A DNA stretch of 64,000 nt from an uncultured Bacteroidaceae bacterium (GTDB lineage Bacteria > Bacteroidota > Bacteroidia > Bacteroidales > Bacteroidaceae): positions 37,275 through 101,274 of the forward strand of contig CAKQYA010000005.1 of the NCBI GenBank assembly GCA_934293005.1, in the 5' to 3' direction. The translations under genes and the position numbers were made by a program. Below are positions 37,458 through 53,420 of this stretch, in pieces. Every line of letters begins with the position of its first letter. The first letter of the stretch is position 1. Below the pieces are notes generated by a model, which was not told the DNA's origin, ran no database searches, and was given only the letters and a program-made list of their open reading frames with translations.

Positions 37458-38630
37458 ATGAAATATGAATATGTAGCTCCTGGCGTCAAATACATCGGAG
37501 TTGATGACCTTGACATAGACCTTTTTGAAGGACAGTATGATGTGCCTGAAGGCATGTCGTACAATTCTTATGTCATCCTTGATGACAAGATAGCTGTGAT
37601 GGATACAGCAGATGCACGCAAGGAAAAAGAATGGATGGCCAACCTTGAGGCCGCGCTTGCTGGCAAGTCTCCTGATTACATTATTGTGCAACACTTTGAG
37701 CCAGACCATTCAGGCTGCGTGAAAACGGTTCTTGATAAATATCCTGGCGCGGTTGCAGTCTGCTCGCAGAAGGCTGTGCCGATGTTTGGCCGTTTCTTTG
37801 ATGTGGATTTTGGAAATCGTCTCAAAGTGGTGAAGGAGGGTGAAGTGCTTCAACTCGGAGAACATACCCTGCAGTTCTTCATGGCTCCAATGGTGCATTG
37901 GCCAGAGGTGATGGTTACATATGAACAGACTACCAAAACATTGTTTACAGCTGATGGTTTTGGTAAGTTTGGAGCTTTATGTAAGGAAGATGAAAATGAT
38001 GAGGGCTGGGCTTGTGAGGCGCGACGCTACTATTTTAATATCGTGGGCAAGTATGGAGCTATGGTACAGAAGCTTCTTGCCAAAGCTTCAACACTTGACA
38101 TCCAGACAATCTGTCCGCTTCATGGTCCTGTGCTCAACGATAACCTTGGACAGTATCTGAGCCTTTATGACACTTGGAGCAAGTATGAGGCTGAAACTAA
38201 AGGGGTCTTCGTGGCTTATTGTTCTATTTATGGCAACACGGCCAAGGCGGCCCTGATGCTGGCAGATATGCTGCGTGAAAAAGATGTGAAAGTGTCTGTC
38301 GCAGACATTGCTCGTGATGATTTGCATGAGGCTGTTGAAGACGCTTTCCGTTATGACCGCATGGTGCTCTGTGCTCCTACGTACGATGGTGGCATAATGC
38401 CGATAATGGAGGATTTCATAAACCATTTGCGCATCAAAACTTATCAGAACCGTAAGGTCGGTTTTGTTGAGAATGGCACATGGGCGCCTGTGGCTGGAAA
38501 AAAAATGATGGAGGAGATGGGGGCAATGAAGAACATTACAATCATCGAACCGTTGGTGACTGTTGAATCGGCTGTGAAAGCAAAGACGGTAGAAAACTTG
38601 AAACTTCTTGCGGATGCATTATGTGACTGA
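37458..38630 (+). CDS. FprA-family A-type flavoprotein (flavodiiron protein; metallo-beta-lactamase + flavodoxin domains)
   Basis: ORF 37389-38630, conserved start at MKYEYVAPGVKYIG; HxExDH di-iron motif (HFEPDHSG); C-terminal flavodoxin fold. Confidence 0.8.
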   Translation: MKYEYVAPGVKYIGVDDLDIDLFEGQYDVPEGMSYNSYVILDDKIAVMDTADARKEKEWMANLEAALAGKSPDYIIVQHFEPDHSGCVKTVLDKYPGAVAVCSQKAVPMFGRFFDVDFGNRLKVVKEGEVLQLGEHTLQFFMAPMVHWPEVMVTYEQTTKTLFTADGFGKFGALCKEDENDEGWACEARRYYFNIVGKYGAMVQKLLAKASTLDIQTICPLHGPVLNDNLGQYLSLYDTWSKYEAETKGVFVAYCSIYGNTAKAALMLADMLREKDVKVSVADIARDDLHEAVEDAFRYDRMVLCAPTYDGGIMPIMEDFINHLRIKTYQNRKVGFVENGTWAPVAGKKMMEEMGAMKNITIIEPLVTVESAVKAKTVENLKLLADALCD

Positions 38631-38881: not shown

Positions 38882-38955
38882 GGTTCGGTAGCTCAGCTGG
38901 ATAGAGCAACAGCCTTCTAAGCTGTGGGTCTTGGGTTCGAATCCCAACCGAATCA
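38882..38955 (+). tRNA. tRNA-Arg (anticodon TCT)
   Basis: 74-nt cloverleaf: acceptor ggttcgg/ccgaatc (one G-U), D-arm gctcagctggatagagc, anticodon stem acagc/gctgt with loop cttctaa, T-arm ttggg-ttcgaat-cccaa. Confidence 0.85.
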
Positions 38956-39758: not shown

Positions 39759-39839
39759 TTTTGGCCGTCTTATAAATTTGATACAGCATATACATGTGTT
39801 AAGCTCTTGAATGAGTCTTTATAACATGTAAAATAATAG

Positions 39840-39875
39840 CCTCTCCATCTATTTTGGAGAGGTTTTTTTGTTTTG
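39840..39875 (+). terminator. rho-independent terminator after rpmB-rpmG-DUF4295
   Basis: cctctcca-tctatttt-ggagagg then tttttttgttttg. Confidence 0.75.
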
Positions 39876-39955: not shown

Positions 39956-40909
39956 ATGGGATTCTTCGATTTGTTTAAGAAAAAAAACAAGGAAACGCTC
40001 GACAAAGGCTTGGCAAAGACCAAGGAAAGCGTCTTTGAAAAGATTGCGCGTGCTGTAGCTGGCAAGTCAAAAGTGGATGATGAAGTGTTGGACAATCTGG
40101 AAGATATCCTTATTTCCAGCGACGTCGGTGTGGATACTACGCTAAAGATTATTCAGCGCATTGAGGAACGCGTGGCGCGTGATAAGTATGTTGGCACAGA
40201 TGAGTTGAATGTAATACTAAGGGAAGAGATAGCGGCATTGCTCACTGAAAATAATTCGGACGATACCGAGGGCTTTCAGATACCACGAAATGCGAACAAA
40301 CCATATATCATACTTGTAGTAGGTGTGAATGGTGTTGGCAAGACCACCACCATCGGTAAGTTGGCATACCAGTTCAAGCAAGCCGGACTGAATGTGTATC
40401 TTGGTGCGGCTGATACTTTCCGAGCTGCAGCCGTAGAACAGATATGCATATGGGGTGAAAGGGTCGGAGTGCCTGTGGTGAAGCAACAGATGGGCAGTGA
40501 CCCTGCAAGCGTGGCATTCGACTCTGTAAGTTCGGCAAAGGCTAATGGAGCTGATGTTGTCATTATTGACACCGCAGGTCGTCTTCACAATAAAATAAAT
40601 CTGATGAATGAACTGACAAAGATAAAGAATGCTGTGAAGAAAGCTTCAGGCCATGAAGCTGACGATGTGATGCTTGTGCTTGATGGCTCTACTGGACAGA
40701 ATGCTTTTGAGCAGGCAAGGCAGTTTACTGCGGCCACTGATGTCACTTCCATGGCAATAACCAAGCTTGACGGCACTGCAAAGGGAGGCGTGGTGATAGG
40801 CATAAGCGACCAGTTGAAAGTGCCTGTACGCTATATTGGCTTGGGCGAGGGCATGGAAGATCTTCAGGCTTTCAATCGCAAGGCTTTCGTGGAAAGCCTG
40901 TTTGGATAA
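39956..40909 (+). CDS. ftsY: signal recognition particle receptor FtsY
   Basis: 317 aa; SRP GTPase motifs (GVNGVGKTTT, DTAGR); TAACTTTG box at 39891-39898. Confidence 0.9.
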   Translation: MGFFDLFKKKNKETLDKGLAKTKESVFEKIARAVAGKSKVDDEVLDNLEDILISSDVGVDTTLKIIQRIEERVARDKYVGTDELNVILREEIAALLTENNSDDTEGFQIPRNANKPYIILVVGVNGVGKTTTIGKLAYQFKQAGLNVYLGAADTFRAAAVEQICIWGERVGVPVVKQQMGSDPASVAFDSVSSAKANGADVVIIDTAGRLHNKINLMNELTKIKNAVKKASGHEADDVMLVLDGSTGQNAFEQARQFTAATDVTSMAITKLDGTAKGGVVIGISDQLKVPVRYIGLGEGMEDLQAFNRKAFVESLFG

Positions 40910-40928
40910 AATAACACCTACTTATCAG

Positions 40929-42230
40929 ATGAGAAAAAATACGGTAGATATTATTACACTTGGATGTTCAAAGAATTTGGTGGATTCTGAAAGGTTGATA
41001 CGCCAATTAGAACTGAACGGCTATAAGGTCACTCATGATAGCGAGAATCCGCAAGGAGAAATAGTTGTTGTCAACACTTGTGGCTTCATAGCTGATGCGC
41101 AGGAAGAAAGCGTGAACATGATTCTTGAATTATGTCAGGCAAAGGCCGAGGGACGTGTCAAGGCAGTGTATGTTATGGGATGCCTTTCGCAAAGATTCAT
41201 GAAAGAACTTGGTCATGAGATACCTCAGGTGGATAAGTTTTATGGCAAATTCAATTGGAATGAATTGCTTGCGGATCTTGGTAAGGTGTATCATGATGAG
41301 TGCTGTTATGAACGGTGTCTCACTACGCCAAGCCATTATGCATATCTGAAGATATCTGAAGGATGTGACCGTCATTGCGCTTATTGCGCTATTCCAATTA
41401 TTACAGGACGTCATCAAAGTCGAAGGATGGAAGACATCGTGGCTGAAGTGGAGCATCTTGTGTCGGAGGGCGTGAAAGAATTTCAAATCATTGCCCAGGA
41501 ATTGACATATTATGGCATAGACCTTTACGGCAAACAGATGATTGCGGAACTGGTGGAACGCATAAGTGATGTGAAGGGTGTGAAGTGGATACGCTTGCAC
41601 TATGCCTATCCAACTAATTTCCCATGGGACTTGCTGCGTGTCATCCGTGAAAGAGATAATGTGTGCAAGTATCTTGACATCGCTCTTCAGCATGTGAGTA
41701 CGCGTGTGCTTGACAACATGCAGCGTCATATTGACAAGGAAGAGACTTATGCTTTTGTGGAACGTGTTCGCAGCGAAGTGCCTGGCATATGTTTGCGCAC
41801 TACATTGATGGTGGGCTTTCCTGGTGAGGGTGATGCGGAATATGAAGAACTTAAGGAATTTGTAAAGTGGGCTAAGTTTGACAGAATGGGCGCATTTGCT
41901 TATTCAGAAGAAGAAGGCACGCCGGCTAAAAGGAATTTTAAAGATGATATTCCTGAAGATGTCAAACATGAACGTCTTAGTGAATTGATGGATATTCAAC
42001 AGGCGATATCATCAGCCGTGCAGGCGCAGAAGGTGGGCCGTGTGCTTAAAGTGGTCATTGACCGCAAGGAAGGAGAGTTTTTTGTGGGACGCACCGAATT
42101 TGATTCCCCTGAAGTTGATCCAGAGGTGCTGATTCCAGTGTCTGAGCGTAATTTGAGGAAAGGTTGCTTTTATGATGTGAAGATAACCGATTCTGATGAT
42201 TTCGATTTGTATGGAAGTGTTGTCGGATGA
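40929..42230 (+). CDS. rimO: ribosomal protein S12 methylthiotransferase RimO (radical SAM MTTase)
   Basis: ORF 40836-42230, conserved start MRKNTVDIITLGCSKN; radical-SAM CAYCAIP; TRAM domain at C-term. Confidence 0.85.
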   Translation: MRKNTVDIITLGCSKNLVDSERLIRQLELNGYKVTHDSENPQGEIVVVNTCGFIADAQEESVNMILELCQAKAEGRVKAVYVMGCLSQRFMKELGHEIPQVDKFYGKFNWNELLADLGKVYHDECCYERCLTTPSHYAYLKISEGCDRHCAYCAIPIITGRHQSRRMEDIVAEVEHLVSEGVKEFQIIAQELTYYGIDLYGKQMIAELVERISDVKGVKWIRLHYAYPTNFPWDLLRVIRERDNVCKYLDIALQHVSTRVLDNMQRHIDKEETYAFVERVRSEVPGICLRTTLMVGFPGEGDAEYEELKEFVKWAKFDRMGAFAYSEEEGTPAKRNFKDDIPEDVKHERLSELMDIQQAISSAVQAQKVGRVLKVVIDRKEGEFFVGRTEFDSPEVDPEVLIPVSERNLRKGCFYDVKITDSDDFDLYGSVVG

Positions 42231-42243
42231 CAAATGACTGAAT

Positions 42244-42534
42244 GTGTATAATTTAATGAACAGTAAGGATTTTATAGATAAGGTATCCCAAAAAGCGGGT
42301 ATTGGTGCAGGCGAGGCCGAGAAGCTCTTGTCTGCTCTTGTGTCGTGCATGCTTGAAGAATTGTCGGATGGGAATAGCATCAGCATGCAAGGATTTGGCA
42401 GTTTTGAGGTACGTGAGAAGAGTGGGAGGAAAATATACAATCCATCATCTAAAGCATATATTGATGTGCCGTCTAAGACCACTGTGGCATATAAAATGAG
42501 CGGTGTCCTCAAAGAACGATTAAACGGAGTGTAG
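42244..42534 (+). CDS. HU family DNA-binding protein
   Basis: 96 aa; HU fold (GFGSFEVREKSGRKIYNPSSKAYIDVPSKTTVAYKMSGVLKERLN). Confidence 0.75.
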   Translation: MYNLMNSKDFIDKVSQKAGIGAGEAEKLLSALVSCMLEELSDGNSISMQGFGSFEVREKSGRKIYNPSSKAYIDVPSKTTVAYKMSGVLKERLNGV

Positions 42535-42537
42535 CCA

Positions 42538-44034
42538 ATGAACGAGAAATTATCATTCCAACATATTGCAGAAGCTCTTTCGCAAAAAGGTAGTGTGCAG
42601 AAAAAGGTGGCAGAGTCTTTTGTCAAGTCATTTTTTGACACAGTGGCTGAAGCTGTGAAAAATGGTGAGGATTCTGTCAAGATTGATGGCTGGGGTACGT
42701 TTAAGCGAGTGTCTGTTGACAGCCGTGAAAGTGTCAATGTGTCTAATGGTGAGCGTATATTAATACAAGGATATACTAAACTTGCATTCTCACCCGAAGA
42801 TACGGTCGTAGCAATGCTTAGCAGAAGTAAAAAGAATTCCAAAATAGAAGAAGCGGATGATGATTGTTCTCTTGATAAGAATGACGTTTCGCAAGAGAGT
42901 GATTTGAGTGATGGAGTTTCTTGTGTTGACACGAATGAGATTCTGCCGGGAAATATAGAGCATGAATGTTTTCTTGATGATATTGTTGAGGAAGATGAGT
43001 CTCCATTTGTGGAACTTGCTAAAGATGATTTTTCAGGTATAGACATGATCATATCTACGCCAGAAAGTTTGAATGACGTGCATCTGCAACTTGAAGAGGC
43101 AAAATCCAAAGTGGCAGAAGCCATAGAGATGGTAAAAAAAGCAAGCGCGGAGAAGGCAAGATTAGAACGTTTGCTGGAACGTCTGGAAAAGAACATTGCT
43201 CCAGAAGAAGTTGGCAACCATAATCTTTACGTTGGCTATTCTGACGAGAAGGAACATTCCGTGCAGGATGATGAGCAGCTTTCAAAGAGCGAGGATGCAT
43301 GTCATGATGATTCTGCCTGTCTGATGTGTTCTGATGATGATAAAGAAGGTGCGCATCTTGATGGCAATGAACAGCATGACGGTGCTTTGCAGCGTGTGCT
43401 GTATGGAAGCGATGATGGCTCAATGTTGAGAGAGGGAGCTTCGAGTGAGGGCGGCATTGAAGCCCCAGTGTCTAAGGATTCTTCATCTAATAGTGGCCGC
43501 AAATGGCTTATAAGCATAGCTTGCATCTTATTGGCCATAGTTCTTGTTGGTGGAATAGGCTATTTGGTTTATGGTACATTCTTGTCAATTGAATCTGTTG
43601 AAAAAGTGCCCAATTTAAATAGTTCTAAAGATATGGTGCATGGCCAGCCTGAGATGAAACCCTCGAAAGGTGATGGAAATTCAGTTGGTAAGTCGGTAAT
43701 GAATAATGATGAATTGGCTGAGAAACCAAAAATTGATAATGAAGTTTGTTTAGATGTGCAGAATGCGAATGATGGCTTGAATGCAAAAACAGATAAACCT
43801 TCTGGAATGTTGGACGATGCTCAGCAAGCGTCTGCCTCTTCTTCTAAACAGAATGTCGTTTCTGATGATAAACCATTGCGTCCCCCAAAATACACATTGA
43901 AGAAAGGCGAGACCCTCACACGTGTATCGCAACGTTTCTATGGCACGAAAGATTCAGTCAGTGCCATCATACGTGTGAACACATTTGTCAATCCAGACAA
44001 TGTGCCAATAGGAGCGGTTATCACTCTTCCGTAA
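42538..44034 (+). CDS. HU-fold N-domain / acidic disordered linker / TM helix / C-terminal LysM domain protein
   Basis: 498 aa; N-term HU-like (GWGTFKRVSVDSRESVNVSNGERILIQGYTKLAFSPE), D/E-rich coiled region, TM WLISIACILLAIVLVGGIGYLVYGTF, LysM KYTLKKGETLTRVSQRFYG...VNPDNVPIGAVITLP; start 4 nt after the preceding HU gene. Confidence 0.7.
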   Translation: MNEKLSFQHIAEALSQKGSVQKKVAESFVKSFFDTVAEAVKNGEDSVKIDGWGTFKRVSVDSRESVNVSNGERILIQGYTKLAFSPEDTVVAMLSRSKKNSKIEEADDDCSLDKNDVSQESDLSDGVSCVDTNEILPGNIEHECFLDDIVEEDESPFVELAKDDFSGIDMIISTPESLNDVHLQLEEAKSKVAEAIEMVKKASAEKARLERLLERLEKNIAPEEVGNHNLYVGYSDEKEHSVQDDEQLSKSEDACHDDSACLMCSDDDKEGAHLDGNEQHDGALQRVLYGSDDGSMLREGASSEGGIEAPVSKDSSSNSGRKWLISIACILLAIVLVGGIGYLVYGTFLSIESVEKVPNLNSSKDMVHGQPEMKPSKGDGNSVGKSVMNNDELAEKPKIDNEVCLDVQNANDGLNAKTDKPSGMLDDAQQASASSSKQNVVSDDKPLRPPKYTLKKGETLTRVSQRFYGTKDSVSAIIRVNTFVNPDNVPIGAVITLP

Positions 44035-44419
44035 TGTTGTGAGTGCATGCTGTGATATGGCAATCCTGTAGCTCTAAATTGGGCTTCAGGATTGTTCTTT
44101 TCTGTTAAACTGATAAATGCAACTTATTGCTAAGTGGTTACTTTGAGAATTATAATCTTTGGCAAATTATAATAACTCTTAAAAACAGTCAGTCTCCGAT
44201 AGTTTTTACATTCTTTAAGATGAGAAGTAGAGAATAAATCGTAATTTTGTAGTCGAAAAAGTCAAATACTGTATCAAACAGGTATAATTGTCTGCTTTGG
44301 TTTATTTGTGTAATTGTTATTTATACATCTAATATTTAGCATTATCTGTTCTTTTGGTATGATTAGTGTCTTTTAAAAACGAAATTGTAGTTAAAATTAT
44401 AATTGATAAAAACATAAAT

Positions 44420-45415
44420 ATGGCAGAATCAATTGACATCCGCGAATTGAACGAACGGATAGAACGTCACAGCGCATTCGTGACAAACATTATGACAGGT
44501 ATGGACCAAGCCATTGTCGGACAAAAACATCTTGTGGAATCATTGCTTCTCGGACTGTTGTCTGATGGACATGTTTTGCTTGAGGGTGTGCCAGGTCTGG
44601 CAAAAACAAAGGCTATAAAGACACTTGCATCACTGATTGATGCACAGTTCAGCCGCATACAGTTCACTCCTGACCTTCTTCCTGCTGATGTTATAGGTAC
44701 AATGATATACAGCCAGAAAGATGGTGAGTTCAAGTCGAAGAAGGGACCTATCTTTGCCAACTTTATTTTGGCAGATGAGATAAACCGCGCGCCAGCTAAG
44801 GTGCAGTCGGCTCTTCTTGAGGCTATGCAAGAGCGTCAGGTCACAATCTCAACTAATACATTTGAGCTTCCAAAGCCGTTTCTTGTGCTTGCCACACAAA
44901 ACCCTATTGAACAAGAAGGCACATATCCTTTGCCAGAAGCGCAGGTAGACCGTTTCATGCTTAAGGTTGTCATTGACTATCCTAAACTTGAAGAAGAGAA
45001 AAAAATCATAAGGCAGAATATATCAGGGGAAAAGTTGGTGACACGTCCTATTATGACTACAGCGGACATTGAAAGTGCTCGCAACGTCGTGCGTGAAGTC
45101 TATCTCGATGAGAAGATTGAACAGTATATTGCAGACATAGTCTTTGCTACTCGCTATCCTGAAAAATATAACCTTAAGGAACTCAAAGGACTCATCAGTT
45201 TTGGCGGTTCGCCACGAGCTTCAATCAATTTGGCTCTTGCGTCACGTTCATATGCCTTTATCAAACACCGTGGATATGTCATCCCTGAAGATGTGCGTGC
45301 TGTGGCACAGGATGTGCTTCGCCACCGCATAGGTCTTACTTATGAGGCTGAAGCCAACAATGTTACTTCCGAGGAAATCATAAGCAAGATTCTCAATAAA
45401 GTGGAAGTGCCTTAA
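44420..45415 (+). CDS. MoxR-family AAA+ ATPase (Bat operon)
   Basis: ORF 44366-45415, start at MAESIDIREL; Walker A GVPGLAKT, MoxR architecture. Confidence 0.85.
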   Translation: MAESIDIRELNERIERHSAFVTNIMTGMDQAIVGQKHLVESLLLGLLSDGHVLLEGVPGLAKTKAIKTLASLIDAQFSRIQFTPDLLPADVIGTMIYSQKDGEFKSKKGPIFANFILADEINRAPAKVQSALLEAMQERQVTISTNTFELPKPFLVLATQNPIEQEGTYPLPEAQVDRFMLKVVIDYPKLEEEKKIIRQNISGEKLVTRPIMTTADIESARNVVREVYLDEKIEQYIADIVFATRYPEKYNLKELKGLISFGGSPRASINLALASRSYAFIKHRGYVIPEDVRAVAQDVLRHRIGLTYEAEANNVTSEEIISKILNKVEVP

Positions 45416-45668
45416 TGTTCTTATAGCTCATAATAGTGAGATGTTTCTGATTTCCTGATGGTCTTTAGACTGAATGCGTGATTCCTGTTATAGCATTAGT
45501 CTTTCTTTTCAAATATAGTCTGCATGATTTTTTTGATGCCCGTCTGATGACTGCATTTCAAAATAGAATGTTGTGACTTCAATATGGACATTGCAATCCG
45601 CTTGCCACATATATAATAAGAATAGAACAAATGACTGTTTGGAGTTAAATATATAAATTCATTTTCTG

Positions 45669-46538
45669 ATGGATACAGAAGAACTTTTGCAAAAAGTAAG
45701 GAAGGTTGAGATTAAGACTAAGGGATTGTCCAACAATATCTTTGCAGGTGAATACCACTCTGCCTTCAAGGGGCGAGGTATGGCATTCAGTGAGGTGCGT
45801 GAATATCAGTATGGTGATGATGTGCGCGATATTGATTGGAATGTCACTGCCCGACTTGGCAAACCTTATGTCAAGGTCTTTGAGGAAGAGCGAGAGCTGA
45901 CGGTCATGCTTCTTGTGGATGTGTCTGGTTCTCTTGATTTTGGCACACAATGCCAAACTAAGCGGCAGCTACTCACTGAGATAGCTGCCACGCTCGCTTT
46001 CTCTGCCATACAGAACAATGATAAGATAGGTGTGATATTCTTTTCTGACAGGATTGAAAAATTCATTCCTCCCAAGAAAGGAAGAAAACATATACTTTTT
46101 ATCATCCGTGAGTTGCTTGGCTTTCAGCCTGCAAGCAACAAAACAGACATAGGCCATGCTGTCGAGTTTATGACGAATGCCATCAAGAAACGTTGCACAG
46201 TGTTTCTTTTGAGTGACTTCTTTGACAGCAAAGACTATAGCAATCAATTGACGGTGGCTAACAGACGTCATGATGTGGTGGCATTGCAGATATATGATCG
46301 TCGCATGGTCGAATTGCCTAATGTCGGCATTGTAAAGATGCTTGATGCCGAGACAGGTCACGACACGTTTGTCGACACCTCATCTTCTGCAGTCAGAAAG
46401 GCTCATCATGAATGGTGGTGTGACCATCAGGCATATTTGCATACGGCTTTCACTAAGTCAAATATAGATAATGTGTCAGTGCGAACAGACGAAGACTATG
46501 TTCGTGCTCTGATGAACTTATTCCGCCGCAGAGGGTGA
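45669..46538 (+). CDS. DUF58 (vWA-like) protein (Bat operon)
   Basis: 289 aa; DUF58-like GEYHSAFKGRGMAFSEVREYQYGDDVRDIDWNVTAR. Confidence 0.8.
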   Translation: MDTEELLQKVRKVEIKTKGLSNNIFAGEYHSAFKGRGMAFSEVREYQYGDDVRDIDWNVTARLGKPYVKVFEEERELTVMLLVDVSGSLDFGTQCQTKRQLLTEIAATLAFSAIQNNDKIGVIFFSDRIEKFIPPKKGRKHILFIIRELLGFQPASNKTDIGHAVEFMTNAIKKRCTVFLLSDFFDSKDYSNQLTVANRRHDVVALQIYDRRMVELPNVGIVKMLDAETGHDTFVDTSSSAVRKAHHEWWCDHQAYLHTAFTKSNIDNVSVRTDEDYVRALMNLFRRRG

Positions 46539-46649
46539 ATAGTTGTCATGCTGCATCATATTACGATACACTTTCTGTTTTTCAGATGATGTTGGGGCGA
46601 TATGATAAATGTGCATGAAGTAAGGAGTATAAATTGAATATAAACCAAG

Positions 46650-47744
46650 ATGGTTAGACTGATTTGTAAAATAAAGTATGTATATGCTGTTGTCCTCATG
46701 TTTTTTTTAGGGACAAGCTCGTTGCAAGCACAGGTGACGGTGGATGCCAAACTTGATTCGGCTGCCATCTTTATAGGGCAACGCATTGGATTGACATTAG
46801 AAGTGTCTGCAGATGCGCAAAAGAATATAGAACTGCCTGAATGGGATTCCCTTCAGCAGATTGTGCCTGGTGTGGAGTTTGTAAATGCAGGGAAAGCTGA
46901 CACAAGTTTTCTTGACAATGACAAGCGCATAGTGCTCAGTCGTCGTTATTACTTTACTTCGTTCGACTCGGCTCTTTATCTCTTGCCAGAGATGCAGGTT
47001 AATGTTGATGGCAAGTTGTATACATCGAAAAAGATGGCATTGAAGGTGCTCACGTTAGACATCGACACCATCCATGCTGACAGCATCTATGGCATAAAGG
47101 CGGAATTGGCTCCTCCGTTCGATTGGGCTGAGTGGCGTCTTGTCATTGTTGGCATCTTGATAGCTCTCCTGTTTGTTGCCATGCTTGTGTATGTATGTTA
47201 TAGATTGAAGCATAATAAGCCGATACTTCACCGCATACGTCGCAAGAAACATGTGCCTCCTCATACTGCGGCAATGAAGAAGATAGAGCTTATCAAGGAT
47301 GAGAAGATATGGCAGAGTGAGGATTCTAAAGAATATTACACTATGCTTACAGACACGCTGCGACAGTATATCAAAGAGCGTTACGGATTCAATGCGCTGG
47401 AGATGACATCATTTGAGATTATTCATAAATTGCAGGAAGTCAATGATGAAACTGCAATAGCTGAATTGCGAGAACTTTTCCAAACAGCAGACCTTGTTAA
47501 GTTTGCTAAATATAGCACGCTTATCAATGAAAATGACCGCAATCTCGTCAGTGCCATAGAGTATATCAACCAGACTAAACTTGAAGAGCCTGAAGAAAAA
47601 CCTCAACCAGAAGTAGTTGTTGTAGAAGAAAAGCGCTCCAAGGTGGCCAAATGGGTGCTAACGGCTTCAATAGTTGTGGTAGGCCTGATGCTTCTTGCCG
47701 TCTTAGCTTATGTTGCATACAGAGTATATATGCTTACTCTATAG
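46650..47744 (+). CDS. Bat-operon membrane protein (signal peptide, two TM helices)
   Basis: 364 aa; position between DUF58 and batA as in Bacteroides Bat operon. Confidence 0.55.
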   Translation: MVRLICKIKYVYAVVLMFFLGTSSLQAQVTVDAKLDSAAIFIGQRIGLTLEVSADAQKNIELPEWDSLQQIVPGVEFVNAGKADTSFLDNDKRIVLSRRYYFTSFDSALYLLPEMQVNVDGKLYTSKKMALKVLTLDIDTIHADSIYGIKAELAPPFDWAEWRLVIVGILIALLFVAMLVYVCYRLKHNKPILHRIRRKKHVPPHTAAMKKIELIKDEKIWQSEDSKEYYTMLTDTLRQYIKERYGFNALEMTSFEIIHKLQEVNDETAIAELRELFQTADLVKFAKYSTLINENDRNLVSAIEYINQTKLEEPEEKPQPEVVVVEEKRSKVAKWVLTASIVVVGLMLLAVLAYVAYRVYMLTL

Positions 47745-47781
47745 CTCCTGTATTTTTTAATGTTCAAGTAATAATGAAATA

Positions 47782-48771
47782 ATGGAATTCAAGAATCCTC
47801 TGTTTTTTCTGTTGCTCATAGCTCTCGTGCCATATATAATATGGTATGTGATGAGATACAAGCAAAGCTTGCCTTCGTTGAAGGTGCCTGATACATCTAA
47901 GTATGCTAAGGTGACCAAGAGTTTTCGGCTGTATTTGCTTCATGTGCCTTTTGTGCTTCGCTTGGTAGTGCTTACCTTGATAATATGCACACTTGCTCGT
48001 CCCCAAAGTAAGCATTCGTGGAGCAATACTGATGTAGAGGGCATTGACATAATGTTGGCGGTAGACGTGTCCACTTCCATGTTGGCGCAAGACTTCAAGC
48101 CAAACAGAGTGGAGGCTTTGAAAAAGATAGCGCAGAAATTTATCGACAATCGTCCCAACGATAATATTGGTCTTACCGTATTTGCTGGTGAGGCATATAC
48201 ACAGTGTCCGCTAACTATTGATCACGCTGTACTGATGAATCTTTATAACAGTGCTGATTGCAATATGGCTGCTCGTGGAGTCATTGACGATGGCACTGCC
48301 ATTGGAGATGGCATTATGAATGCTATTCTCCGTCTGAAGGATAGCGAGGCTAAGTCTAAAGTCATCATTCTGCTCACCGATGGTGTTAATAATAGCGGAA
48401 ATATATCCCCTGTGACAGCAGCAGAGATTGCTCGCAAGTATGGCATACGTATATACACCATAGGCATTGGCCGCAATGGAATGGCTCCTTATCCACTGCC
48501 AACAGGCGGCACTGCGATGCTTCCTGTTGAAATAGACGAGGCTGCTATGACAAAGATTTCGTCAGAGACAGGCGGACGTTATTTCCGCGCTCAGAAAAAT
48601 GATGAACTTTTGTCGGTATACAATGACATAGATGATATGGAGCGCACCAAATTCAGTGTGAAGCAATATAGTCGTCGCAATGAGTTGTATGAGCCTTTTG
48701 CTCTTACAGCTCTTGTGGTGCTTGTGTTTGAGGTGTTGTTGCGCACCGTTGTGCTGAGGCGATTGCCTTGA
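47782..48771 (+). CDS. batA: aerotolerance protein BatA (vWA domain, N-terminal TM)
   Basis: 329 aa; vWA MIDAS DVSTSM...TAIGDGI; operon position. Confidence 0.8.
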   Translation: MEFKNPLFFLLLIALVPYIIWYVMRYKQSLPSLKVPDTSKYAKVTKSFRLYLLHVPFVLRLVVLTLIICTLARPQSKHSWSNTDVEGIDIMLAVDVSTSMLAQDFKPNRVEALKKIAQKFIDNRPNDNIGLTVFAGEAYTQCPLTIDHAVLMNLYNSADCNMAARGVIDDGTAIGDGIMNAILRLKDSEAKSKVIILLTDGVNNSGNISPVTAAEIARKYGIRIYTIGIGRNGMAPYPLPTGGTAMLPVEIDEAAMTKISSETGGRYFRAQKNDELLSVYNDIDDMERTKFSVKQYSRRNELYEPFALTALVVLVFEVLLRTVVLRRLP

Positions 48772-48826
48772 CACATTTTTTTCGTGAGATATAGTATTTG
48801 AACTTAATGGATTAAATGTTAGAGAA

Positions 48827-49843
48827 ATGTTCAGATTTGCGTGTCCAATATATTTGTACCTTTTGGTGCTGATTCCGGTGATGATTTTGGTATATGCTTT
48901 CATGCGGTACCGAGCCAAAAAGCAACTGAATAAGTTTGGCGATCCCGTTCTGGTCAAGTTGCTTGTGCCAGATGTGTCGCCAATGAGGCAACATGTTAAA
49001 TTTTTCTTGATGATGGCTGCGTATGCTCTTCTCTGTGTTGTCTTGGCACGTCCGCAGTATGGTACCCGTAATGAAGAGGTTAAACGCCAGGGCATAGAAG
49101 TAGCCATAGCTGTCGATGTGTCCAACTCTATGCTTTGTGAGGATGTCAGTCCTAATCGTCTTGAGAAATCAAAAATGATAGTTAGCAAGCTTGTCGAGCA
49201 GTTTGACGAGGATAAGGTAGGTCTTGTGGCATTTGCAGGAAGCGCGATAACGTTGCTTCCAATGACAGGCGACTATGTGTCAGCAAAGATGTTTCTTGAT
49301 CAACTCAACCCTGCTACAGTGACTATGCAAGGCACTAATCTTGCTGAGGCCATAACGCGTGCCACTGCTGGATTCTCAGAAAAGGCAGGCGTAGGGCGTG
49401 CTCTGATTCTTATCACAGACGCAGAAGACAATGAACAAGGTGCTGTGGAAGCAGCCAAAGACGCCAAACGTCTTGGAGTGCAAATTTTTGTTTTGTCTGT
49501 AGGCACGTCGCAGGGAGGCCCCATTCCTATGGGAGATGGTTCCTTTAAGAAAGACAGCGATGGCAATGTGGTCACGACTAAATTGAATGAAAACATAGGA
49601 AAGAGCATAGCTCAGGCTGGCGGTGGTGTATATGTGCATGTAGACCAGACTAATCTGGCTCAAGAACTTTTGAATAAAGAAATTGAAAAGATGCAGAAAG
49701 ATGATATATCCACATCCATGTATTCAGCTTATGATGAGCAGTTTGTGGCTGTTGCATTGCTTGCTTTCATTGTGCTGATGGCTGAAGTGTGTGTGATGGA
49801 AAGAAAAAACAGGTGGATAAAGAAATATAAATTGTTCAACTAA
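48827..49843 (+). CDS. batB: aerotolerance protein BatB (vWA domain)
   Basis: 338 aa; second vWA DVSNSM; C-terminal TM. Confidence 0.8.
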   Translation: MFRFACPIYLYLLVLIPVMILVYAFMRYRAKKQLNKFGDPVLVKLLVPDVSPMRQHVKFFLMMAAYALLCVVLARPQYGTRNEEVKRQGIEVAIAVDVSNSMLCEDVSPNRLEKSKMIVSKLVEQFDEDKVGLVAFAGSAITLLPMTGDYVSAKMFLDQLNPATVTMQGTNLAEAITRATAGFSEKAGVGRALILITDAEDNEQGAVEAAKDAKRLGVQIFVLSVGTSQGGPIPMGDGSFKKDSDGNVVTTKLNENIGKSIAQAGGGVYVHVDQTNLAQELLNKEIEKMQKDDISTSMYSAYDEQFVAVALLAFIVLMAEVCVMERKNRWIKKYKLFN

Positions 49844-49945
49844 TGTTCATACTGCGGTTGTTTATATAGAATATCACTTGGCGATCGGTGGAGATTATCA
49901 TTATATTTTGAGGCAGTTTAAACAAAATAATAACCATTTAAGCAG

Positions 49946-50704
49946 ATGAGACAAATAATCATTGGCATATTGATGTTTTTCGTTCTTGTGCCAGCATCAG
50001 CACAGAATGCGCGCGACTATATACGCATGGGCAACAAGGCATACCGCCAAAGCCAGTATGACAAGGCTGAGACGATGTATTTAAAGTCCGTGTCTAAGGT
50101 GCCCTCATTCGAGGGATATTACAATCTTGGCAACGTTTACGTCATGCAGAGGAAAGACTCTACAGCCTTTGAAAATTATAAAAAAGCTGATTCAATAGGC
50201 ATTAACGATGCAGTGCGCAAATCGCTTAACTATCATAATATGGGCAATATCTGGTATGCTCAAGGCATTGCGGCGACTCGCTCGCATGAGGGCAATGCTG
50301 CAGATGCATTCCAGAATGCTGTCAATTTCTATAAGAGCGCACTTCGTTGCAATCCTTCCGATAATGAAACTCGATACAACCTTGCAATGGCGCAGTATCA
50401 GCTGAAGAAGAGCCAAAACAACAAAGGCGGCGGTCAGAATGATAATGGCAAGGATGATAAAGACCAACAGAAACAAAAGCAGCAGAATAAAGACCAACAG
50501 AAAAAGGACCAACAGAAAAAGGACCAACAGAAAGATAATAAGGATCAGCAGCAAAATAAATCCAACAGTGAGAAAAAGGATGAAATGAGCAAACAAGCTG
50601 CCGAACAACTGCTTAATTCTGCTCAACAAGATGAGAAGAGCGTTCAACGAAAATTGAACGAGAATAAGGACAACCGTCGCAAAACACTCGAAAAAGACTG
50701 GTGA
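49946..50704 (+). CDS. batC: aerotolerance protein BatC (TPR repeats with K/D/Q-rich low-complexity tail)
   Basis: 252 aa; TPR-like YYNLGNVY / HNMGNIWY; tail KDQQKKDQQKKDQQK. Confidence 0.7.
   Translation: MRQIIIGILMFFVLVPASAQNARDYIRMGNKAYRQSQYDKAETMYLKSVSKVPSFEGYYNLGNVYVMQRKDSTAFENYKKADSIGINDAVRKSLNYHNMGNIWYAQGIAATRSHEGNAADAFQNAVNFYKSALRCNPSDNETRYNLAMAQYQLKKSQNNKGGGQNDNGKDDKDQQKQKQQNKDQQKKDQQKKDQQKDNKDQQQNKSNSEKKDEMSKQAAEQLLNSAQQDEKSVQRKLNENKDNRRKTLEKDW
50488..50532 (+). repeat. 15-bp tandem repeat (aa[ag]gaccaacagaaa x3, plus a diverged copy upstream) inside batC
   Basis: encodes KDQQK iterations; potential length-variable low-complexity tail. Confidence 0.7.
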
Positions 50705-50826
50705 GTCAATTTGTGGAGAATGTCTGTCAAATAGCTATTGCCTTTTATGAATGATGGATATTCAATTCAGTCTTCTCTTTATGAGACGTATTATATATAG
50801 ATGATACAATTGACGACTATAAGATT

Positions 50827-52671
50827 ATGAAAAGAATAACAAATATAATTCTATTATTTTGCGTATTTGTATGCGCATGGGCTGATGGCAATGTCACCTT
50901 CAAGGCGACAGTGCCATCTACGGTAGAAGCTGGGGGCAAATTCCGAGTGCAGTTTACTGTCAACACACAGGATGTCTCAGGTTTTTCAGCTCCTGATTTC
51001 AAGGGATTTGAGGTGCTTTACGGTCCAGCCACTTCTTCCCAAAGCAGTTTTCAGATAATTAACGGCCGTACGTCTCAAAGCAGCAGCGTGATTTATTCAT
51101 ACGTGCTCATGGCCAACCAGTCGGGAACATATACTATAGGCAGTGCAAGTGTGCATGCCGGAGGCAAAACTGTGAAGACACGCCCTGTGCAAGTAAAGGT
51201 GCTGCCGTCAGGATCCCAGTCGTCAGGTACATCTTCAAGTTCATCGTCTGCTTCATCTCGCAATGTCTCGTCACGTGAATCCTCGTCGGACGCAGGACGT
51301 GGCATTTCAGCCAGAGACTTGTTCATGACTGCAACAGCTTCGCGCACTAACGTGCATGAACAGGAAGCCGTGCTTTTGACTTATAAGATATACACACTTG
51401 TAGACCTCACGCAGCTTGATGGCAAACTTCCAACATTGGATGGATTCCAGATTCAAGAGATACCTCTGCCACGTACAAAGGAGTTTCAGCTTGAACAGTA
51501 TAATGGCCGCAATTATCGCACAGTTGTTTGGAGCCAGTATCTTGTCTTCCCGCAGAAGTCGGGCAAACTTACCATTCCATCCATAACATATGATGGAGTT
51601 GTTGTTACCCGCAACCGCAATATCGATCCATTTGAAGCGTTCTTTAATGGCAATAGTGGCTATGTTGAGACAAAAAAGAAGATAGTGACAAAGCCAATAG
51701 TTATAAATGTGTCTCCACTTACAGGCAAACCTTCTGGCTTCTCAGGAGCTGTCGGCAAGTTCAGCATCTCATCAAGCATTAGTTCTCATGCTGTAGATGC
51801 CAATGAAGCTGTCACCCTTAAATTGAAGGTCAGCGGAAACGGAAACATGAAGCTCATATCTACTCCTTTAGTTGATTTCCCTAAAGACTTCGAAACTTAT
51901 GATGCTAAAGTGACTGACAACTTCTCCATTTCGCGTACAGGACTCACTGGAACAAAAGAGTTTGAGTATCTTGCCGTTCCTCGCCATCCAGGCACTTATA
52001 CTATTCCTGCTGTAAAGTTTATTTACTTCGACACTGCAACGCGCACATACAAAACGCTGATGACGGAACCGTATGAGTTGAAAGTAAACAAAGGCAAAGG
52101 GGGATATGGTCAAAGTGTGACAAGCTACAGCGGACAGCAACAAGATGTTCAGCAACTAAACCAAGACATTCGATTCATCAAGAAAGGTGATGTGGAATAC
52201 CATCGGTCATACGATGCTTTTTTTGCTACATGGCGCTTTTGGCTTGCATACATCATACCTTTGGTACTTTTCTGTGTAGCTGTATCGTTTGGTCGCAAAC
52301 GATTGAGAATGAATGCTAATGTAGCTCTTTCGCGTGGACGTAAGGCTAACAAGGTGGCTATCAAACGTCTTAAAGCGGCAAAGAAGCTTCTTGATGCTCA
52401 TGAACGTGAACCGTTTTACGATGAGGTGCTTCGTGCCCTTCTTGGATATGTGGGGGATAAATTTAATATGTCGCAAGAGACGCTCAATAAGGAGAATATT
52501 GAACAGTCGCTCGCATCGCGCAGAGTCCCTAACGAATATGTTGATGCTTTCATGAAGGTCATCAACGACTGTGAGTTTGCACGATATGCGCCGGGAGACC
52601 CTGAAGCTAATATGGAGCAGGTCTATGACAGTTCTATCGAGACTATTAGTAAAATGGAGGATAATTTATGA
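50827..52671 (+). CDS. batD: aerotolerance protein BatD
   Basis: 614 aa; signal peptide, S/T-rich linker, C-terminal TM; overlaps next gene by 4 nt (ATGA). Confidence 0.75.
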   Translation: MKRITNIILLFCVFVCAWADGNVTFKATVPSTVEAGGKFRVQFTVNTQDVSGFSAPDFKGFEVLYGPATSSQSSFQIINGRTSQSSSVIYSYVLMANQSGTYTIGSASVHAGGKTVKTRPVQVKVLPSGSQSSGTSSSSSSASSRNVSSRESSSDAGRGISARDLFMTATASRTNVHEQEAVLLTYKIYTLVDLTQLDGKLPTLDGFQIQEIPLPRTKEFQLEQYNGRNYRTVVWSQYLVFPQKSGKLTIPSITYDGVVVTRNRNIDPFEAFFNGNSGYVETKKKIVTKPIVINVSPLTGKPSGFSGAVGKFSISSSISSHAVDANEAVTLKLKVSGNGNMKLISTPLVDFPKDFETYDAKVTDNFSISRTGLTGTKEFEYLAVPRHPGTYTIPAVKFIYFDTATRTYKTLMTEPYELKVNKGKGGYGQSVTSYSGQQQDVQQLNQDIRFIKKGDVEYHRSYDAFFATWRFWLAYIIPLVLFCVAVSFGRKRLRMNANVALSRGRKANKVAIKRLKAAKKLLDAHEREPFYDEVLRALLGYVGDKFNMSQETLNKENIEQSLASRRVPNEYVDAFMKVINDCEFARYAPGDPEANMEQVYDSSIETISKMEDNL

Positions 52672-53420
52672 TTAAAAGAATATATATAATGTTAGTGATG
52701 GTGTTTATGTGCGCCATCACTGCTATTGCAGCAACTAAAGCCGAGGCTGATGCATTGTATGAAAAAGAGAATTATGCAGAAGCCGCAAAAGTTTATCTGA
52801 TGGTAACAAAGGCCAACGGCGTGTCATATGAGGTTTATTATAATCTTGGAAACTGTTATTATAATTTGGATGACATTCCGCAAGCCGTGCTATATTATGA
52901 GCGAGCTTATTTGTTGAATCCTGGTGATGCTGATGTGCGTGCCAACCTTGCTTTGGCGCGCGGCAAGACCGTTGATAAGGTTGTGCCTCCTTCTGAGATG
53001 TTTTTCGTCACTTGGTGGCGCGAACTGACTCATTGTATGGATGTCACATCGTGGACGGCATTAGGACTGACATCATTTATCCTTATGCTTGTAGGTGTGA
53101 CGCTATACATGTTCATGTCACAACTTTGGCTTCGTAAGATTGGCGTTTATGGAGCTATGTTTCTTTTTGTGCTGTTGATTGTGGCAAATATGGCTGCATT
53201 TTCGCAACATCGTGACATGGTCAATCGCAACACTGCTATAATCATGGCACCTGCAGTCACAGTCAAAAGTTCTCCAAGTGACCGCAGCACGGATCTCTTT
53301 GTGATACATGAAGGCTCTAAAGTGGAAATAATAGATAAGAGCATGTCCGACTGGATTGAAGTGAAGTTTGAGGAAGGCAAACAAGGGTGGATACCAGTCG
53401 GTGCTGCCGAGGTGATTTAA
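52668..53420 (+). CDS. batE: aerotolerance protein BatE (TPR + TM + SH3-like C-terminus)
   Basis: 250 aa; TPR YYNLGNCYY; C-terminal SH3b-like GSKVEIIDKSMSDWIEVKFEEGKQGWIP. Confidence 0.7.
   Translation: MIKRIYIMLVMVFMCAITAIAATKAEADALYEKENYAEAAKVYLMVTKANGVSYEVYYNLGNCYYNLDDIPQAVLYYERAYLLNPGDADVRANLALARGKTVDKVVPPSEMFFVTWWRELTHCMDVTSWTALGLTSFILMLVGVTLYMFMSQLWLRKIGVYGAMFLFVLLIVANMAAFSQHRDMVNRNTAIIMAPAVTVKSSPSDRSTDLFVIHEGSKVEIIDKSMSDWIEVKFEEGKQGWIPVGAAEVI

Follow-up and report, generated by a model that had tools for sequence, protein, structure and literature searches.

Two adjacent HU-fold genes in the analyzed DNA (a window of 64,000 nucleotides from an uncultured Bacteroidaceae bacterium) encode a small, classical-type HU and a 498-aa protein in which a divergent HU domain is followed by acidic disordered spacers, a conserved family-specific module, a single transmembrane (TM) helix, and a C-terminal LysM domain. 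We regard it as slightly on the probable side that the two HU folds, probably as a heterodimer, tie DNA via the membrane to peptidoglycan, with a role in chromosome positioning or segregation. Very little work exists on how the Bacteroidales, a dominant order of the gut and rumen, position their chromosomes and coordinate this with wall growth and division. As a conserved unit of vertical inheritance, the two genes offer a testable candidate for a physical connection from DNA across the membrane to peptidoglycan. A nucleoid-to-cell-wall tether had already been proposed in an earlier reading of the sequence alone (here, the sequence-only reading). This proposal agrees with a published prediction for the family (PMC5499826), and we infer the function itself.

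Organization and conservation of the locus

Both HU-fold ORFs lie in tandem on the plus strand with rimO directly upstream (Table 1), as the sequence-only reading had described; the gap between the two HU genes, given there as 4 nt, is in fact 3 nt (TAG cca ATG). This short junction is consistent with translational coupling, and the two genes share a reading frame. Stop-to-start gaps of 1 to 11 nt were found in 35 of the 40 related loci in which the pair was resolved (3 nt in 16 loci and 4 nt in 10). Since 3-nt and 4-nt gaps each occur often, the relative reading frame varies between loci, and read-through or fusion of the two genes as a selected feature was ruled out.

In a consensus scan, the stretch from ftsY through rimO to the HU genes showed no terminator-like sites, and rimO and the HU pair probably share a transcription unit. 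Downstream of the pair, a stem (GGCAATCCTG/CAGGATTGTT) followed by TTCTTTTCTGTT forms a hairpin with a T-rich tract, a probable intrinsic terminator that would end the unit; positions 44035 to 44120 fold at -26.8 kcal/mol (RNAfold). The consensus scan overlooked this hairpin because of its long loop. No structured RNA was found within or near the HU pair.

The same gene pair was present in approximately 55 of 61 related genome loci, as well as in metagenome contigs; its arrangement is not due to chance. Without exception, the related loci belong to Prevotellaceae, Bacteroidaceae, or Bacteroidales MAGs, and in nearly all of those compared rimO adjoins the HU pair upstream. The gene order ftsY-rimO-HU-HU-LysM is shared across the Bacteroidales, distant members included; the longer series rpmB-rpmG-ftsY-rimO-HU-HU-LysM is kept even where the members are only 24 to 26% identical.

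Two other origins of the locus were considered. Membership in a defense system was ruled out, as the PADLOC models gave only two 14-bit matches, both across the module region (aa ~162 to 256). A phage origin was ruled out as well, with similarity to PHROGs confined to generic HU and endolysin-LysM.

Table 1. Features of the rimO-HU-HU-LysM locus (positions within the window)
Feature	Position	Strand	Basis or remark
rimO (ribosomal protein S12 methylthiotransferase)	40926..42230	+	TIGR01125, E = 2e-135, above cut-off
Small-HU ORF as first opened	42244..42534	+	GTG start, 96 aa
Stand-alone classical-type HU, 92 aa	42256..42534	+	PF00216, E = 3.8e-22
Stop-start junction, TAG cca ATG	42532..42540	+	3 nt between stop and start, read in the sequence
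Bitopic HU-TM-LysM protein, 498 aa, whole CDS	42538..44034	+	ORF list, Pfam
Divergent HU/IHF-alpha-like domain, aa 1-104, predicted cytoplasmic	42538..42849	+	PF00216, E = 3.4e-15
Acidic disordered spacer 1, aa 105-151	42850..42990	+	pLDDT < 50
Family-specific module, aa 152-223, predicted cytoplasmic	42991..43206	+	Conservation, AF2
Module motif F-x-G-I-D-M-L-I-S-T-P-E-S, aa 165-177	43030..43068	+	Part of the conserved module
Module a/d-heptad helix, aa 178-218	43069..43191	+	Heptad hydrophobic periodicity
Acidic disordered spacer 2, aa 224-318	43207..43491	+	pLDDT < 50
Single TM helix, core aa 323-348	43504..43581	+	Mean KD 2.59; AF2 helix 319-353, pLDDT 86-93
Disordered spacer, near-neutral, aa 354-444, predicted periplasmic	43597..43869	+	pLDDT < 50
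C-terminal LysM domain, aa 445-498	43870..44031	+	PF01476, E = 7.3e-7
Intrinsic terminator, probable	44059..44106	+	Hairpin, then T-rich tract

The small stand-alone HU

The first protein of the pair had been taken for a canonical HU of 96 aa. Its classical HU character was upheld (PF00216, 78.8 bits versus a cut-off of 22.4), and its closest relative in the PDB is the HU of T. maritima (E = 4e-14). The length is probably shorter: since homologues have 91 to 92 aa and begin with MTNKEF, translation probably starts at the ATG at 42256 (MNSKDF; 92 aa) rather than at the GTG at 42244. Across the family, the clasp of the small HU carries a mean of 8.6 K/R (net charge, +6.3), and the NP tip was present in 40/40 sequences. 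With a p-distance of 0.39, versus 0.08 to 0.13 for neighboring housekeeping genes, the small HU evolves 3 to 4 times faster than its neighbors. Scores against the NCBIfam IHF equivalogs were below the cut-off of 111 bits for both the small HU (best, 50.5 bits) and the fused domain of the second protein (37.5 bits).

The fused HU domain

The ORF of the second gene was found at its predicted length of 498 aa, and 546 homologues of the protein were retrieved, with 35 to 43% identity over the full length among the matches listed. Its first ~95 aa had been described as HU-like, and on this point Pfam, the AF2 fold, and Foldseek all agree. PF00216 matched aa 8 to 89 with 56.5 bits (cut-off, 22.4), and the AF2 model consists of H7-18, H22-41, five strands, and H88-99 (pLDDT 92 to 96). 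The G-x-G turns of the HU fold are present as GWG and GFG. When the long protein was compared with the PDB using Foldseek, the top 37 matches were HU or IHF chains, followed by LysM domains. The best match of the fused domain was IHF-alpha (8flj_E, E = 2.9e-7), to which it aligns without gaps through the beta-arm, including an untruncated arm tip. The HU-CCDC81_bac_1/2 models (PF18174/PF18175) did not match the fused domain at E ≤ 0.1; weak matches to PF18175 occurred in 4 of 108 representatives (best E = 1.1e-4) and were taken as below the 35-bit gathering cut-off.

The beta-arm of the fused domain (RESVNVSNGERI) is full length and invariant in the family, yet it is charge-neutral, and Val68 sits where a tip proline would be. 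Family-wide, the clasp of the fused domain, counted over 41 aa from the G-x-G turn, contains 5.3 K/R versus 5.3 D/E (net charge, 0), and the tip proline is absent in 44/44 sequences (Val or another residue). Because the fused arm lacks most of the canonical DNA-contact residues, binding of DNA by the anchored unit may be weak, or its ligand may be a different one. DNA binding probably rests on the small partner, as the arm of the fused domain is neutral and without an intercalating proline. The fused domain is also a good example of an HU-fold subunit turned anchor, with DNA contacts of its own that were probably given up.

Acidic spacers and a conserved cytoplasmic module

The region between the HU domain and the TM helix had been read as an acidic linker with heptad-like stretches. 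Both its acidity and the heptads were recovered, but it is not a simple linker: a near-invariant module of ~70 aa lies between two disordered spacers. Within the family, spacer 1 has a median length of 72 aa (range, 12 to 175) and a net charge of -24.9 per 100 aa, and spacer 2 has a median length of 90 aa and a net charge of -20.1 per 100 aa. In the module, AF2 with a deep alignment predicted H166-171, a kink, and H175-218 (pLDDT 78 to 91), and I168, D169, P175, and E176 were invariant in all 108 representatives. No Pfam family matched the module. A word-indexed search with the module alignment also gave no match, probably because the profile is short and compositionally biased, and an exhaustive HMMER search was used instead, in which just 119 of 1.84e9 representatives matched. 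PF00216 was carried by 92 of the 108 module representatives scanned, and LysM was carried by 80 of the 108 family representatives. Natural two-HU fusions were not found among the module-bearing proteins, whose long members have longer acidic linkers.

Membrane topology and the LysM domain

The single TM helix noted in the sequence-only reading corresponds to one hydrophobic segment that AF2 also models as a helix. No other hydropathy window of the long protein exceeded 1.0, and exactly one TM helix was found in 97/97 full-length members. The long protein has no signal peptide, and GRK lies on the N side of the helix. Throughout the family, the N-side flank is richer in K/R than the C-side flank (3.8 versus 2.4), with N exceeding C in 70 members and the reverse in 14. 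On the basis of the missing signal peptide and this positive-inside bias, the protein is predicted to be N-in/C-out, in line with the earlier placement of the DNA-binding fold inside the cell and of LysM in the periplasm. Neither of the two findings that would have spoken against the sequence-only reading was obtained, as the N-terminal domain has an HU/IHF fold and a TM helix is predicted.

The spacer that follows the helix has a family net charge of -2.8 per 100 aa. At the C terminus, PF01476 matched aa 452 to 498 with 29.5 bits (cut-off, 20.9), so that the LysM domain, as PF00216 in both proteins, lies above its gathering cut-off. The AF2 model of this domain has the order beta-alpha-alpha-beta (E451-453, H460-467, H473-481, and E494-496; pLDDT 96 to 97), and Foldseek detected resemblance to LysM-GlcNAc complexes (4b8v, 5k2l, and 7r1l). 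The LysM domain would bind peptidoglycan outside the cytoplasm.

Joint loss and co-variation of the two HU parts

Some members of the family lack the fused HU domain (L053, L058, L060, P0204, P0222, P0230, and P0235), and in each of these loci the stand-alone HU is missing as well. The two HU parts were lost together in at least 2 to 3 separate sub-lineages, which retained the module, TM helix, and LysM domain; the resulting variants have 274 to 302 aa and are still encoded in the same locus. Among the loci examined, none had one HU part but not the other. With its gene in fragments on a short scaffold, an additional candidate (P0138) was left out of the count. As the module-TM-LysM part survives the loss of HU, it forms a conserved core anchored in the envelope, not recognized in the sequence-only reading, to which the HU parts are an addition, and the core role of the protein can be fulfilled without DNA binding.

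The small HU and the fused domain also co-vary. Their correlation (r = 0.91) was the highest of all pairs tested, and the partial correlation given RimO and FtsY was 0.76, a value attained by 0/2000 permutations, although mirror-tree correlations of this kind may stem from common rate variation rather than physical contact.

A proposed heterodimeric HU tether and alternative explanations

HU folds are obligate intertwined dimers, and for this reason the small HU is proposed to heterodimerize with the HU domain of the long protein. The joint loss and the co-variation of the two HU parts support this indirectly. Via the 3-nt stop-start junction, the small HU would be produced at approximately 1:1 with the long protein, and the two would form an asymmetric DNA-bending unit whose small subunit provides the canonical DNA contacts. 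The coiled coil would join two chains or dock a cytoplasmic partner, and the long acidic spacers would serve as flexible stand-offs that repel DNA and membrane. The outcome would be a tether between nucleoid, membrane, and cell wall, probably for chromosome positioning or segregation at division. Alternatively, the coiled coil could pair two fused HU domains as a homodimer.

This last arrangement is part of an unlikely explanation in which the two HU proteins work independently: the fused domain would homodimerize with the help of a parallel coiled coil and serve as the anchor, and the small HU would be an ordinary homodimeric nucleoid protein that is merely coexpressed. HU proteins often homodimerize, the a/d helix of ~5 heptads that follows the HU domain could keep two chains in register, and the small HU looks wholly classical. 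However, neither its fast evolution nor its absence wherever the fused domain is lost would be expected of a general nucleoid protein. The tight stop-start coupling and the co-variation, strongest between the two HU parts, also argue against separate action, and a homodimer with a neutral, proline-less arm would bind DNA poorly. We consider it highly improbable that the long protein is a membrane-sequestered regulator. In that case, it would capture the small HU at the membrane as an anti-HU, its LysM domain would sense the state of the cell wall, and an HU unit set free by regulated proteolysis or a conformational change would modify the structure of the nucleoid or gene expression. DNA binding could indeed be blocked by the charge-neutral arm together with the spacers beside the HU domain, which are very acidic and resemble DNA mimics, and one-component transmembrane regulators are likewise bitopic with an extracytoplasmic ligand-binding domain, although this is an analogy only. 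Against this, no protease, anti-sigma-like, or signaling gene is conserved beside the pair, no cleavage motif was identified in the protein, and the invariant coiled-coil module would be left unexplained. Furthermore, bacterial LysM domains are generally anchors, not sensors.

A different emphasis, possible but in our estimation not probable, makes the conserved core (motif and coiled coil, TM helix, and LysM) an envelope or divisome adaptor of FtsN-like layout, which would act on a cytoplasmic partner by recruitment or regulation, for example on a factor of the divisome, of cell-wall synthesis, or of partition; the HU pair would be an accessory chromosome link in most lineages. This explanation overlaps with the tether and places the primary function elsewhere. 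The conservation of the four invariant module residues exceeds that of both HU and LysM, the module is restricted to the HU-TM-LysM family, and the lineages that shed both HU parts kept the core in place; in one homologue (L049), the motif is retained although the helix that follows it has been replaced. However, the HU domain is kept by most representatives and its arm is invariant, which indicates strong selection on the HU part in most lineages. No similarity links the motif to a known interaction motif or Pfam family, the partner is only putative, and the neighborhood of the HU pair contains no divisome genes. A more specific and rather doubtful extension is that the module docks a putative division or partition factor of the Bacteroidales within a trans-envelope system of peptidoglycan, membrane, and chromosome, in which the HU heterodimer is a removable cartridge. 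If true, this would be a lineage-specific system functionally similar to Ter linkage or nucleoid occlusion, whose HU cartridge was dropped several times in evolution.

Comparison with known systems

The architecture, the two-gene operon, and the tether idea were already published in 2017 (Burroughs, Kaur, Zhang & Aravind; PMC5499826), and the present finding rediscovers and refines a known kind of system. That study describes a bacterial membrane-anchored HU-CCDC81 clade composed of HU, a disordered segment, a TM helix, and SPOR or LysM. It pairs single-HU forms with a stand-alone, classical-like HU in an operon of two genes and predicts that the two form a heterodimer tethering nucleoid and envelope (PMC5499826). 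The 498-aa protein shares its N-terminal HU, disordered segment, single TM helix, C-terminal LysM, and two-gene operon with the clade in this description. A 2025 preprint still calls the nucleoid-envelope tether idea untested, and our literature search found no experimental work on the phenotype, localization, or binding of the HU-TM-LysM family.

The present family also differs from the published clade. Its fused domain matches the general PF00216 model and not the HU-CCDC81_bac_1/2 models. The arm is not truncated; truncation of the beta-hairpin tip is ascribed mainly to two-domain forms (PMC5499826) and may not apply to single-HU forms. Depletion of basic residues in the clasp is only partial (5.3, compared with ~2.8 in the clade and ~8.1 in classical HU according to the same study), although the regions measured may differ. 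The segment described there as disordered holds an invariant motif and coiled-coil module here, and HU-less derivatives, which the accessible part of PMC5499826 does not mention, were observed. New in this study are the motif and coiled-coil module, the asymmetric HU arms, the conservation of the locus, the joint loss of the HU parts, and their co-variation. The asymmetric HU pair, the invariant motif with its coiled coil, and the natural HU-less variants provide experimenters with hypotheses and controls.

The proposed DNA-bending unit of two unlike HU-fold subunits resembles IHF alpha/beta of Proteobacteria, and IHF-alpha chains are the nearest solved relatives of the fused domain. In contrast to IHF, only one subunit here has a basic arm and tip proline, one subunit is membrane-anchored, and the genes are adjacent and probably translationally coupled; no sign of sequence-specific binding was seen. 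In FtsN-type bitopic proteins with SPOR or LysM domains, a short cytoplasmic segment for interactions is followed by one TM helix, a flexible linker in the periplasm, and a domain at the C terminus that binds peptidoglycan; the HU-less variants match this layout. However, the present proteins have no SPOR domain, no sequence similarity to FtsN, and an unrelated cytoplasmic motif, and a role in division is putative.

Noc (the nucleoid occlusion protein of B. subtilis), RacA-DivIVA, and the MatP-ZapB-ZapA Ter linkage are DNA-binding proteins by which the chromosome is linked with the membrane or the division machinery, in some of them through coiled-coil adaptors. They are functional analogues with unrelated folds (ParB-like, MerR-like, and ribbon-helix-helix); to our knowledge, none of them spans the membrane, binds peptidoglycan directly, or has an HU fold. 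Noc and RacA are also named as parallels in PMC5499826.

Gene pair and domain architecture

The two genes directly downstream of rimO encode a small, stand-alone HU and a 498-aa protein (the long protein); coordinates are collected in the table below. Both products belong to the HU/IHF superfamily, and the LysM domain of the long protein is genuine. The sequence-only reading had described an HU gene followed by a fusion of HU, acidic linker, transmembrane (TM) helix and LysM, and this observation is real and was correctly read. The HU-like N terminus and the C-terminal LysM were recovered by Pfam, by AF2 modeling and by Foldseek searches against the PDB, in which the best 37 matches were HU/IHF chains and the next were LysM domains bound to GlcNAc oligomers. 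AF2 models built with a 24-sequence and a 108-sequence alignment were both confident in the HU fold (pLDDT up to 92-96), the beta-alpha-alpha-beta LysM fold (pLDDT 96-97), a long helix at aa 175-218 and the TM helix at aa 319-353; the remainder had a pLDDT of <50. The claimed TM helix contains the sole strongly hydrophobic segment of the protein (aa 323-348; mean KD, 2.59), and neither a missing HU fold nor a missing TM helix, both looked for as outcomes contrary to the reading, occurred. A GRK sequence lies at the N side of this helix, no N-terminal signal peptide was found in the long protein, and a single-TM, N-in/C-out topology is predicted. IHF status was rejected for both proteins in an equivalog profile search, as was defense-protein status in a defense-model search.

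Two details of the pair needed revision. The identity of the small HU held, but not its length of 96 aa: as homologues are 91 to 92 aa long and begin with MTNKEF, the ATG at 42256 is the likely start, giving 92 aa. The genes do adjoin; their gap, however, is 3 nt rather than 4 nt, and both share one reading frame. An antisense ORF across this region, rich in serine and leucine, does not look like a gene and seems to be a side effect of the GA-rich acidic coding strand.

Features of the HU locus and of HU-less relatives (window coordinates unless a related locus is named)
Feature	Coordinates	Strand	Remarks
Flavodiiron-type protein gene	37458..38630	+	ODP/metallo-beta-lactamase and flavodoxin domains; upstream of rpmB-rpmG
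tRNA gene	38882..38955	+	After flavodiiron-type gene; only Rfam match in whole window
Terminator-like site	39838-39864		Before ftsY; sole such upstream site in window
rimO	40926..42230	+	TIGR01125, E = 2e-135
Antisense ORF, 401 aa	42012..43217	-	Overlaps rimO end, small HU gene and first half of long gene
Small HU ORF	42244..42534	+	PF00216, Pfam E = 3.8e-22, above gathering score
Long-protein ORF	42538..44034	+	PF00216 aa 8-89, E = 3.4e-15; LysM aa 452-498, E = 7.3e-7; above gathering scores
Strong hairpin and T-tract	44059-44106		After long gene; -26.8 kcal/mol
Bat operon, complete	44366..53420	+	Follows HU pair
HU-less form, L053	4923-5831		
HU-less form, L058	4926-5825		
HU-less form, L060	4926-5819		
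HU-less form, L067	4001-4843		
HU-less form, L069	4001-4831		
HU-less form, L072	1509-2333		
HU-less form, L073	3001-3846		

Locus conservation and transcription unit

Synteny with rimO, proposed as a check on the sequence-only reading, was observed, with the HU pair directly after rimO and the order conserved among related loci. One genome per species was scanned with a pattern that required exact conserved peptides, so the 61 loci obtained are a minimum for the distribution; all came from rumen and gut MAGs of Prevotellaceae, Bacteroidaceae or Bacteroidales. The conserved order was rpmB-rpmG-ftsY-rimO-HU-HU-LysM, usually followed by moxR-DUF58 of the Bat (Bacteroides aerotolerance) operon, and was kept even where the long protein was only 24 to 26% identical to that of the window. 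In the window, ftsY was likewise identified upstream by Pfam. The Bat operon here comprises a MoxR AAA+ ATPase, a DUF58/VWA protein, a 364-aa membrane protein, BatA, BatB, a TPR protein, BatD and a TPR-SH3 protein, and moxR-DUF58 also lies downstream of the pair in most related loci.

Across 40 loci, the stop-to-start gap between the HU genes was 3 nt in 16, 4 nt in 10 and between 1 and 11 nt in 35, a spacing that fits translational coupling. Gaps of 3 nt and of 4 nt both occur frequently, and read-through fusion was therefore rejected as a conserved feature. The terminator-like sites before ftsY and after the long gene suggest a probable transcription unit ftsY-rimO-HU-HU-LysM.

Conserved cytoplasmic module and acidic spacers

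The segment previously read as an acidic linker is indeed acidic and heptad-like, but it is not featureless. In two alignments, one of 24 full-length homologues (35 to 45% identity) and a later one of 108 cluster representatives, conservation of the long protein peaked in a cytoplasmic module (aa ~152-223), above HU and LysM. It opens with the motif F-x-G-I-D-M/L-L-I-S-T-P-E-S, in which I168, D169, P175 and E176 were invariant in all 108 representatives. The helix that follows has hydrophobic positions at 181/185/188/192/195/199/202/206/209/213/216, an a/d heptad pattern spanning ~5 heptads. The AF2 model from the deeper alignment placed a short helix at 166-171, a kink at S-T-P and the long helix at 175-218 (pLDDT 78-91). 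The module had no match in a Pfam scan, and a module-only profile retrieved just 119 proteins at E <= 0.001 from 1.84 billion cluster representatives. Among 108 scanned module-bearing representatives, PF00216 was present in 92 and LysM in 80, while SPOR or another recurrent domain was present in none; the module is therefore specific to the HU-TM-LysM family. In the long protein of one related locus (L049), the motif G-I-D-L-I-I-S-T-P-E-S is kept and a repeat rich in proline and valine stands in place of the coiled-coil helix; the helix is thus not needed for the short motif to persist.

Across the family, the two cytoplasmic spacers carry net charges of -25 and -20 per 100 aa and range from 12 to 175 aa and from 48 to 251 aa, while the periplasmic spacer, at -2.8 per 100 aa, is close to neutral. 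Acidic spacer 1 of four homologues (P0081, P0099, P0117 and P0120) holds tandem SSEAEQ(T/I) repeats in differing amounts (alignment A1, columns ~140-200 and 330-410). The length of this spacer therefore appears to vary as repeats are gained or lost, with only its acidity and disorder seemingly conserved.

Asymmetry and co-variation of the two HU modules

The nearest relative of the stand-alone HU is classical HU (Thermotoga maritima HU, E = 4e-14), and its clasp, the DNA-binding arm region, averaged 8.6 K/R with a net charge of +6.3 over 40 loci, with an N-P tip in every one. The HU domain fused to the long protein is nearest to IHF-alpha (E = 2.9e-7), and as this alignment is gapless through the arm, the arm is not truncated. 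Its clasp is charge neutral (5.3 K/R versus 5.3 D/E); another residue takes the place of the tip proline in 44 of 44 members, so that most read S-V-N-V there. The arm R-E-S-V-N-V-S-N-G-E-R-I is almost invariant among the 24 homologues, indicating strong constraint for some function.

When the HU pair (42256..44034) was set against its flanks (39956..42230 and 44366..46538), it diverged three to four times faster than its neighbors. The two HU parts had mean p-distances of 0.39 and 0.34, versus 0.13 for RimO and 0.08 for FtsY, and tblastn identities to the window were 25 to 70% for the pair versus 67 to 97% for FtsY, RimO, MoxR and DUF58. Pairwise distances of the two HU modules over 39 loci correlated at r = 0.91, more strongly than any other pair tested, and at a partial r of 0.76 after removal of the RimO and FtsY signal, a value reached by none of 2,000 permutations. 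This supports, but does not prove, co-evolution of the two modules, as shared rate variation could contribute to the correlation.

Natural HU-less forms

Seven HU-less relatives (L053, L058, L060, P0204, P0222, P0230 and P0235), of 274 to 302 aa, occupy the slot directly after rimO with gaps of 15 to 120 nt and amount to natural domain-deletion "experiments." Motif, coiled coil and TM helix are kept in all, as is a LysM-like C terminus; they have neither an HU domain nor a stand-alone HU gene, and no HU remnant was detectable. In a comparison of the shared region they spread over different sub-lineages: P0222 adjoins the HU-bearing P0218, P0220 and P0228, P0230 adjoins the HU-bearing P0215, P0232 and P0214, and the P0204/L053 group is a third cluster. 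Both HU modules were therefore lost jointly at least two or three times, and none of the loci examined kept one without the other. The L053 contig (JAMPEL010000010.1) is labeled "MAG: Roseburia sp." and carries a Bacteroidales-type rpmB-rpmG-ftsY-rimO-(module-TM-LysM)-moxR-DUF58 locus whose flanking genes are 76 to 95% identical to those of the window; its binning into a Firmicutes MAG is almost certainly an error, the contig being from Bacteroidales.

Proposed mechanism and alternatives

A refined form of the published nucleoid tether is the best-supported model, and we consider it probable, if only modestly so. A heterodimer would form between the small HU, which is basic, and the fused HU with its neutral arm, the two being made roughly 1:1, and the canonical DNA contacts would come from the small subunit. 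Through its coiled coil the long protein could pair with a second chain or dock a partner, the acidic spacers would act as flexible stand-offs, and the TM helix and LysM would hold the assembly at the inner membrane and peptidoglycan. The analysis shows the domains and folds, their conservation, the coupling of the genes, the co-loss and the co-variation, and predicts the topology from sequence; the heterodimer, its binding to DNA, the binding of peptidoglycan and the role in the cell are inferred.

The persistence of HU-less forms shows that module-TM-LysM has a function independent of the HU modules. The core could accordingly be pictured as an FtsN-like envelope or divisome adaptor for which the HU pair is an optional cartridge; this reading overlaps with the tether and by itself seems rather unlikely. 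The joint loss argues that both HU modules work as a unit, and it is improbable that the fused HU homodimerises and the small HU acts independently. A role of the long protein as a membrane-sequestering regulator of the small HU is very improbable.

Relation to the published HU-CCDC81 family

In 2017, Burroughs, Kaur, Zhang and Aravind (PMC5499826) described HU proteins from Bacteroidetes that also contain a disordered segment and a TM region and end in a SPOR or LysM domain. They stated that the gene for a single-HU form shares a two-gene operon with that for a stand-alone HU of classical-like type, and proposed that the heterodimer serves as an anchor between nucleoid and envelope during segregation. 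Nucleoid anchoring is still presented as an untested computational prediction in a 2025 preprint (10.1101/2024.06.24.600358). No experimental work on the HU-TM-LysM family was found in the literature searched, and public sources name its members only "HU family DNA-binding protein" or "nucleoid DNA-binding protein/LysM repeat protein." The finding is therefore a rediscovery of a computationally described, experimentally uncharacterised family. Additions to the published picture are the invariant module of motif and coiled coil, numbers for the asymmetry of the arms, synteny that holds in distant members, co-loss on repeated occasions and the co-variation; they sharpen the tether hypothesis and give experimental handles, and leave that category unchanged.

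In architecture and operon structure, the long protein matches the single-HU LysM branch of the HU-CCDC81 clade as set out in PMC5499826. Three sequence hallmarks of that clade are not clearly present: Pfam HU-CCDC81_bac had no match in the fused HU, the arm is not truncated, and the depletion of basic residues is only partial. By architecture and operon the long protein is thus assigned to the kind of system described in that paper, as a candidate member of the clade in the strict sense. A coiled coil is not mentioned for the bacterial forms in the same paper; the long protein carries a conserved one (aa 175-218) downstream of its HU domain, and the eukaryotic HU-CCDC81 proteins, as described in section 7 of PMC5499826, combine HU domains with a C-terminal coiled coil.
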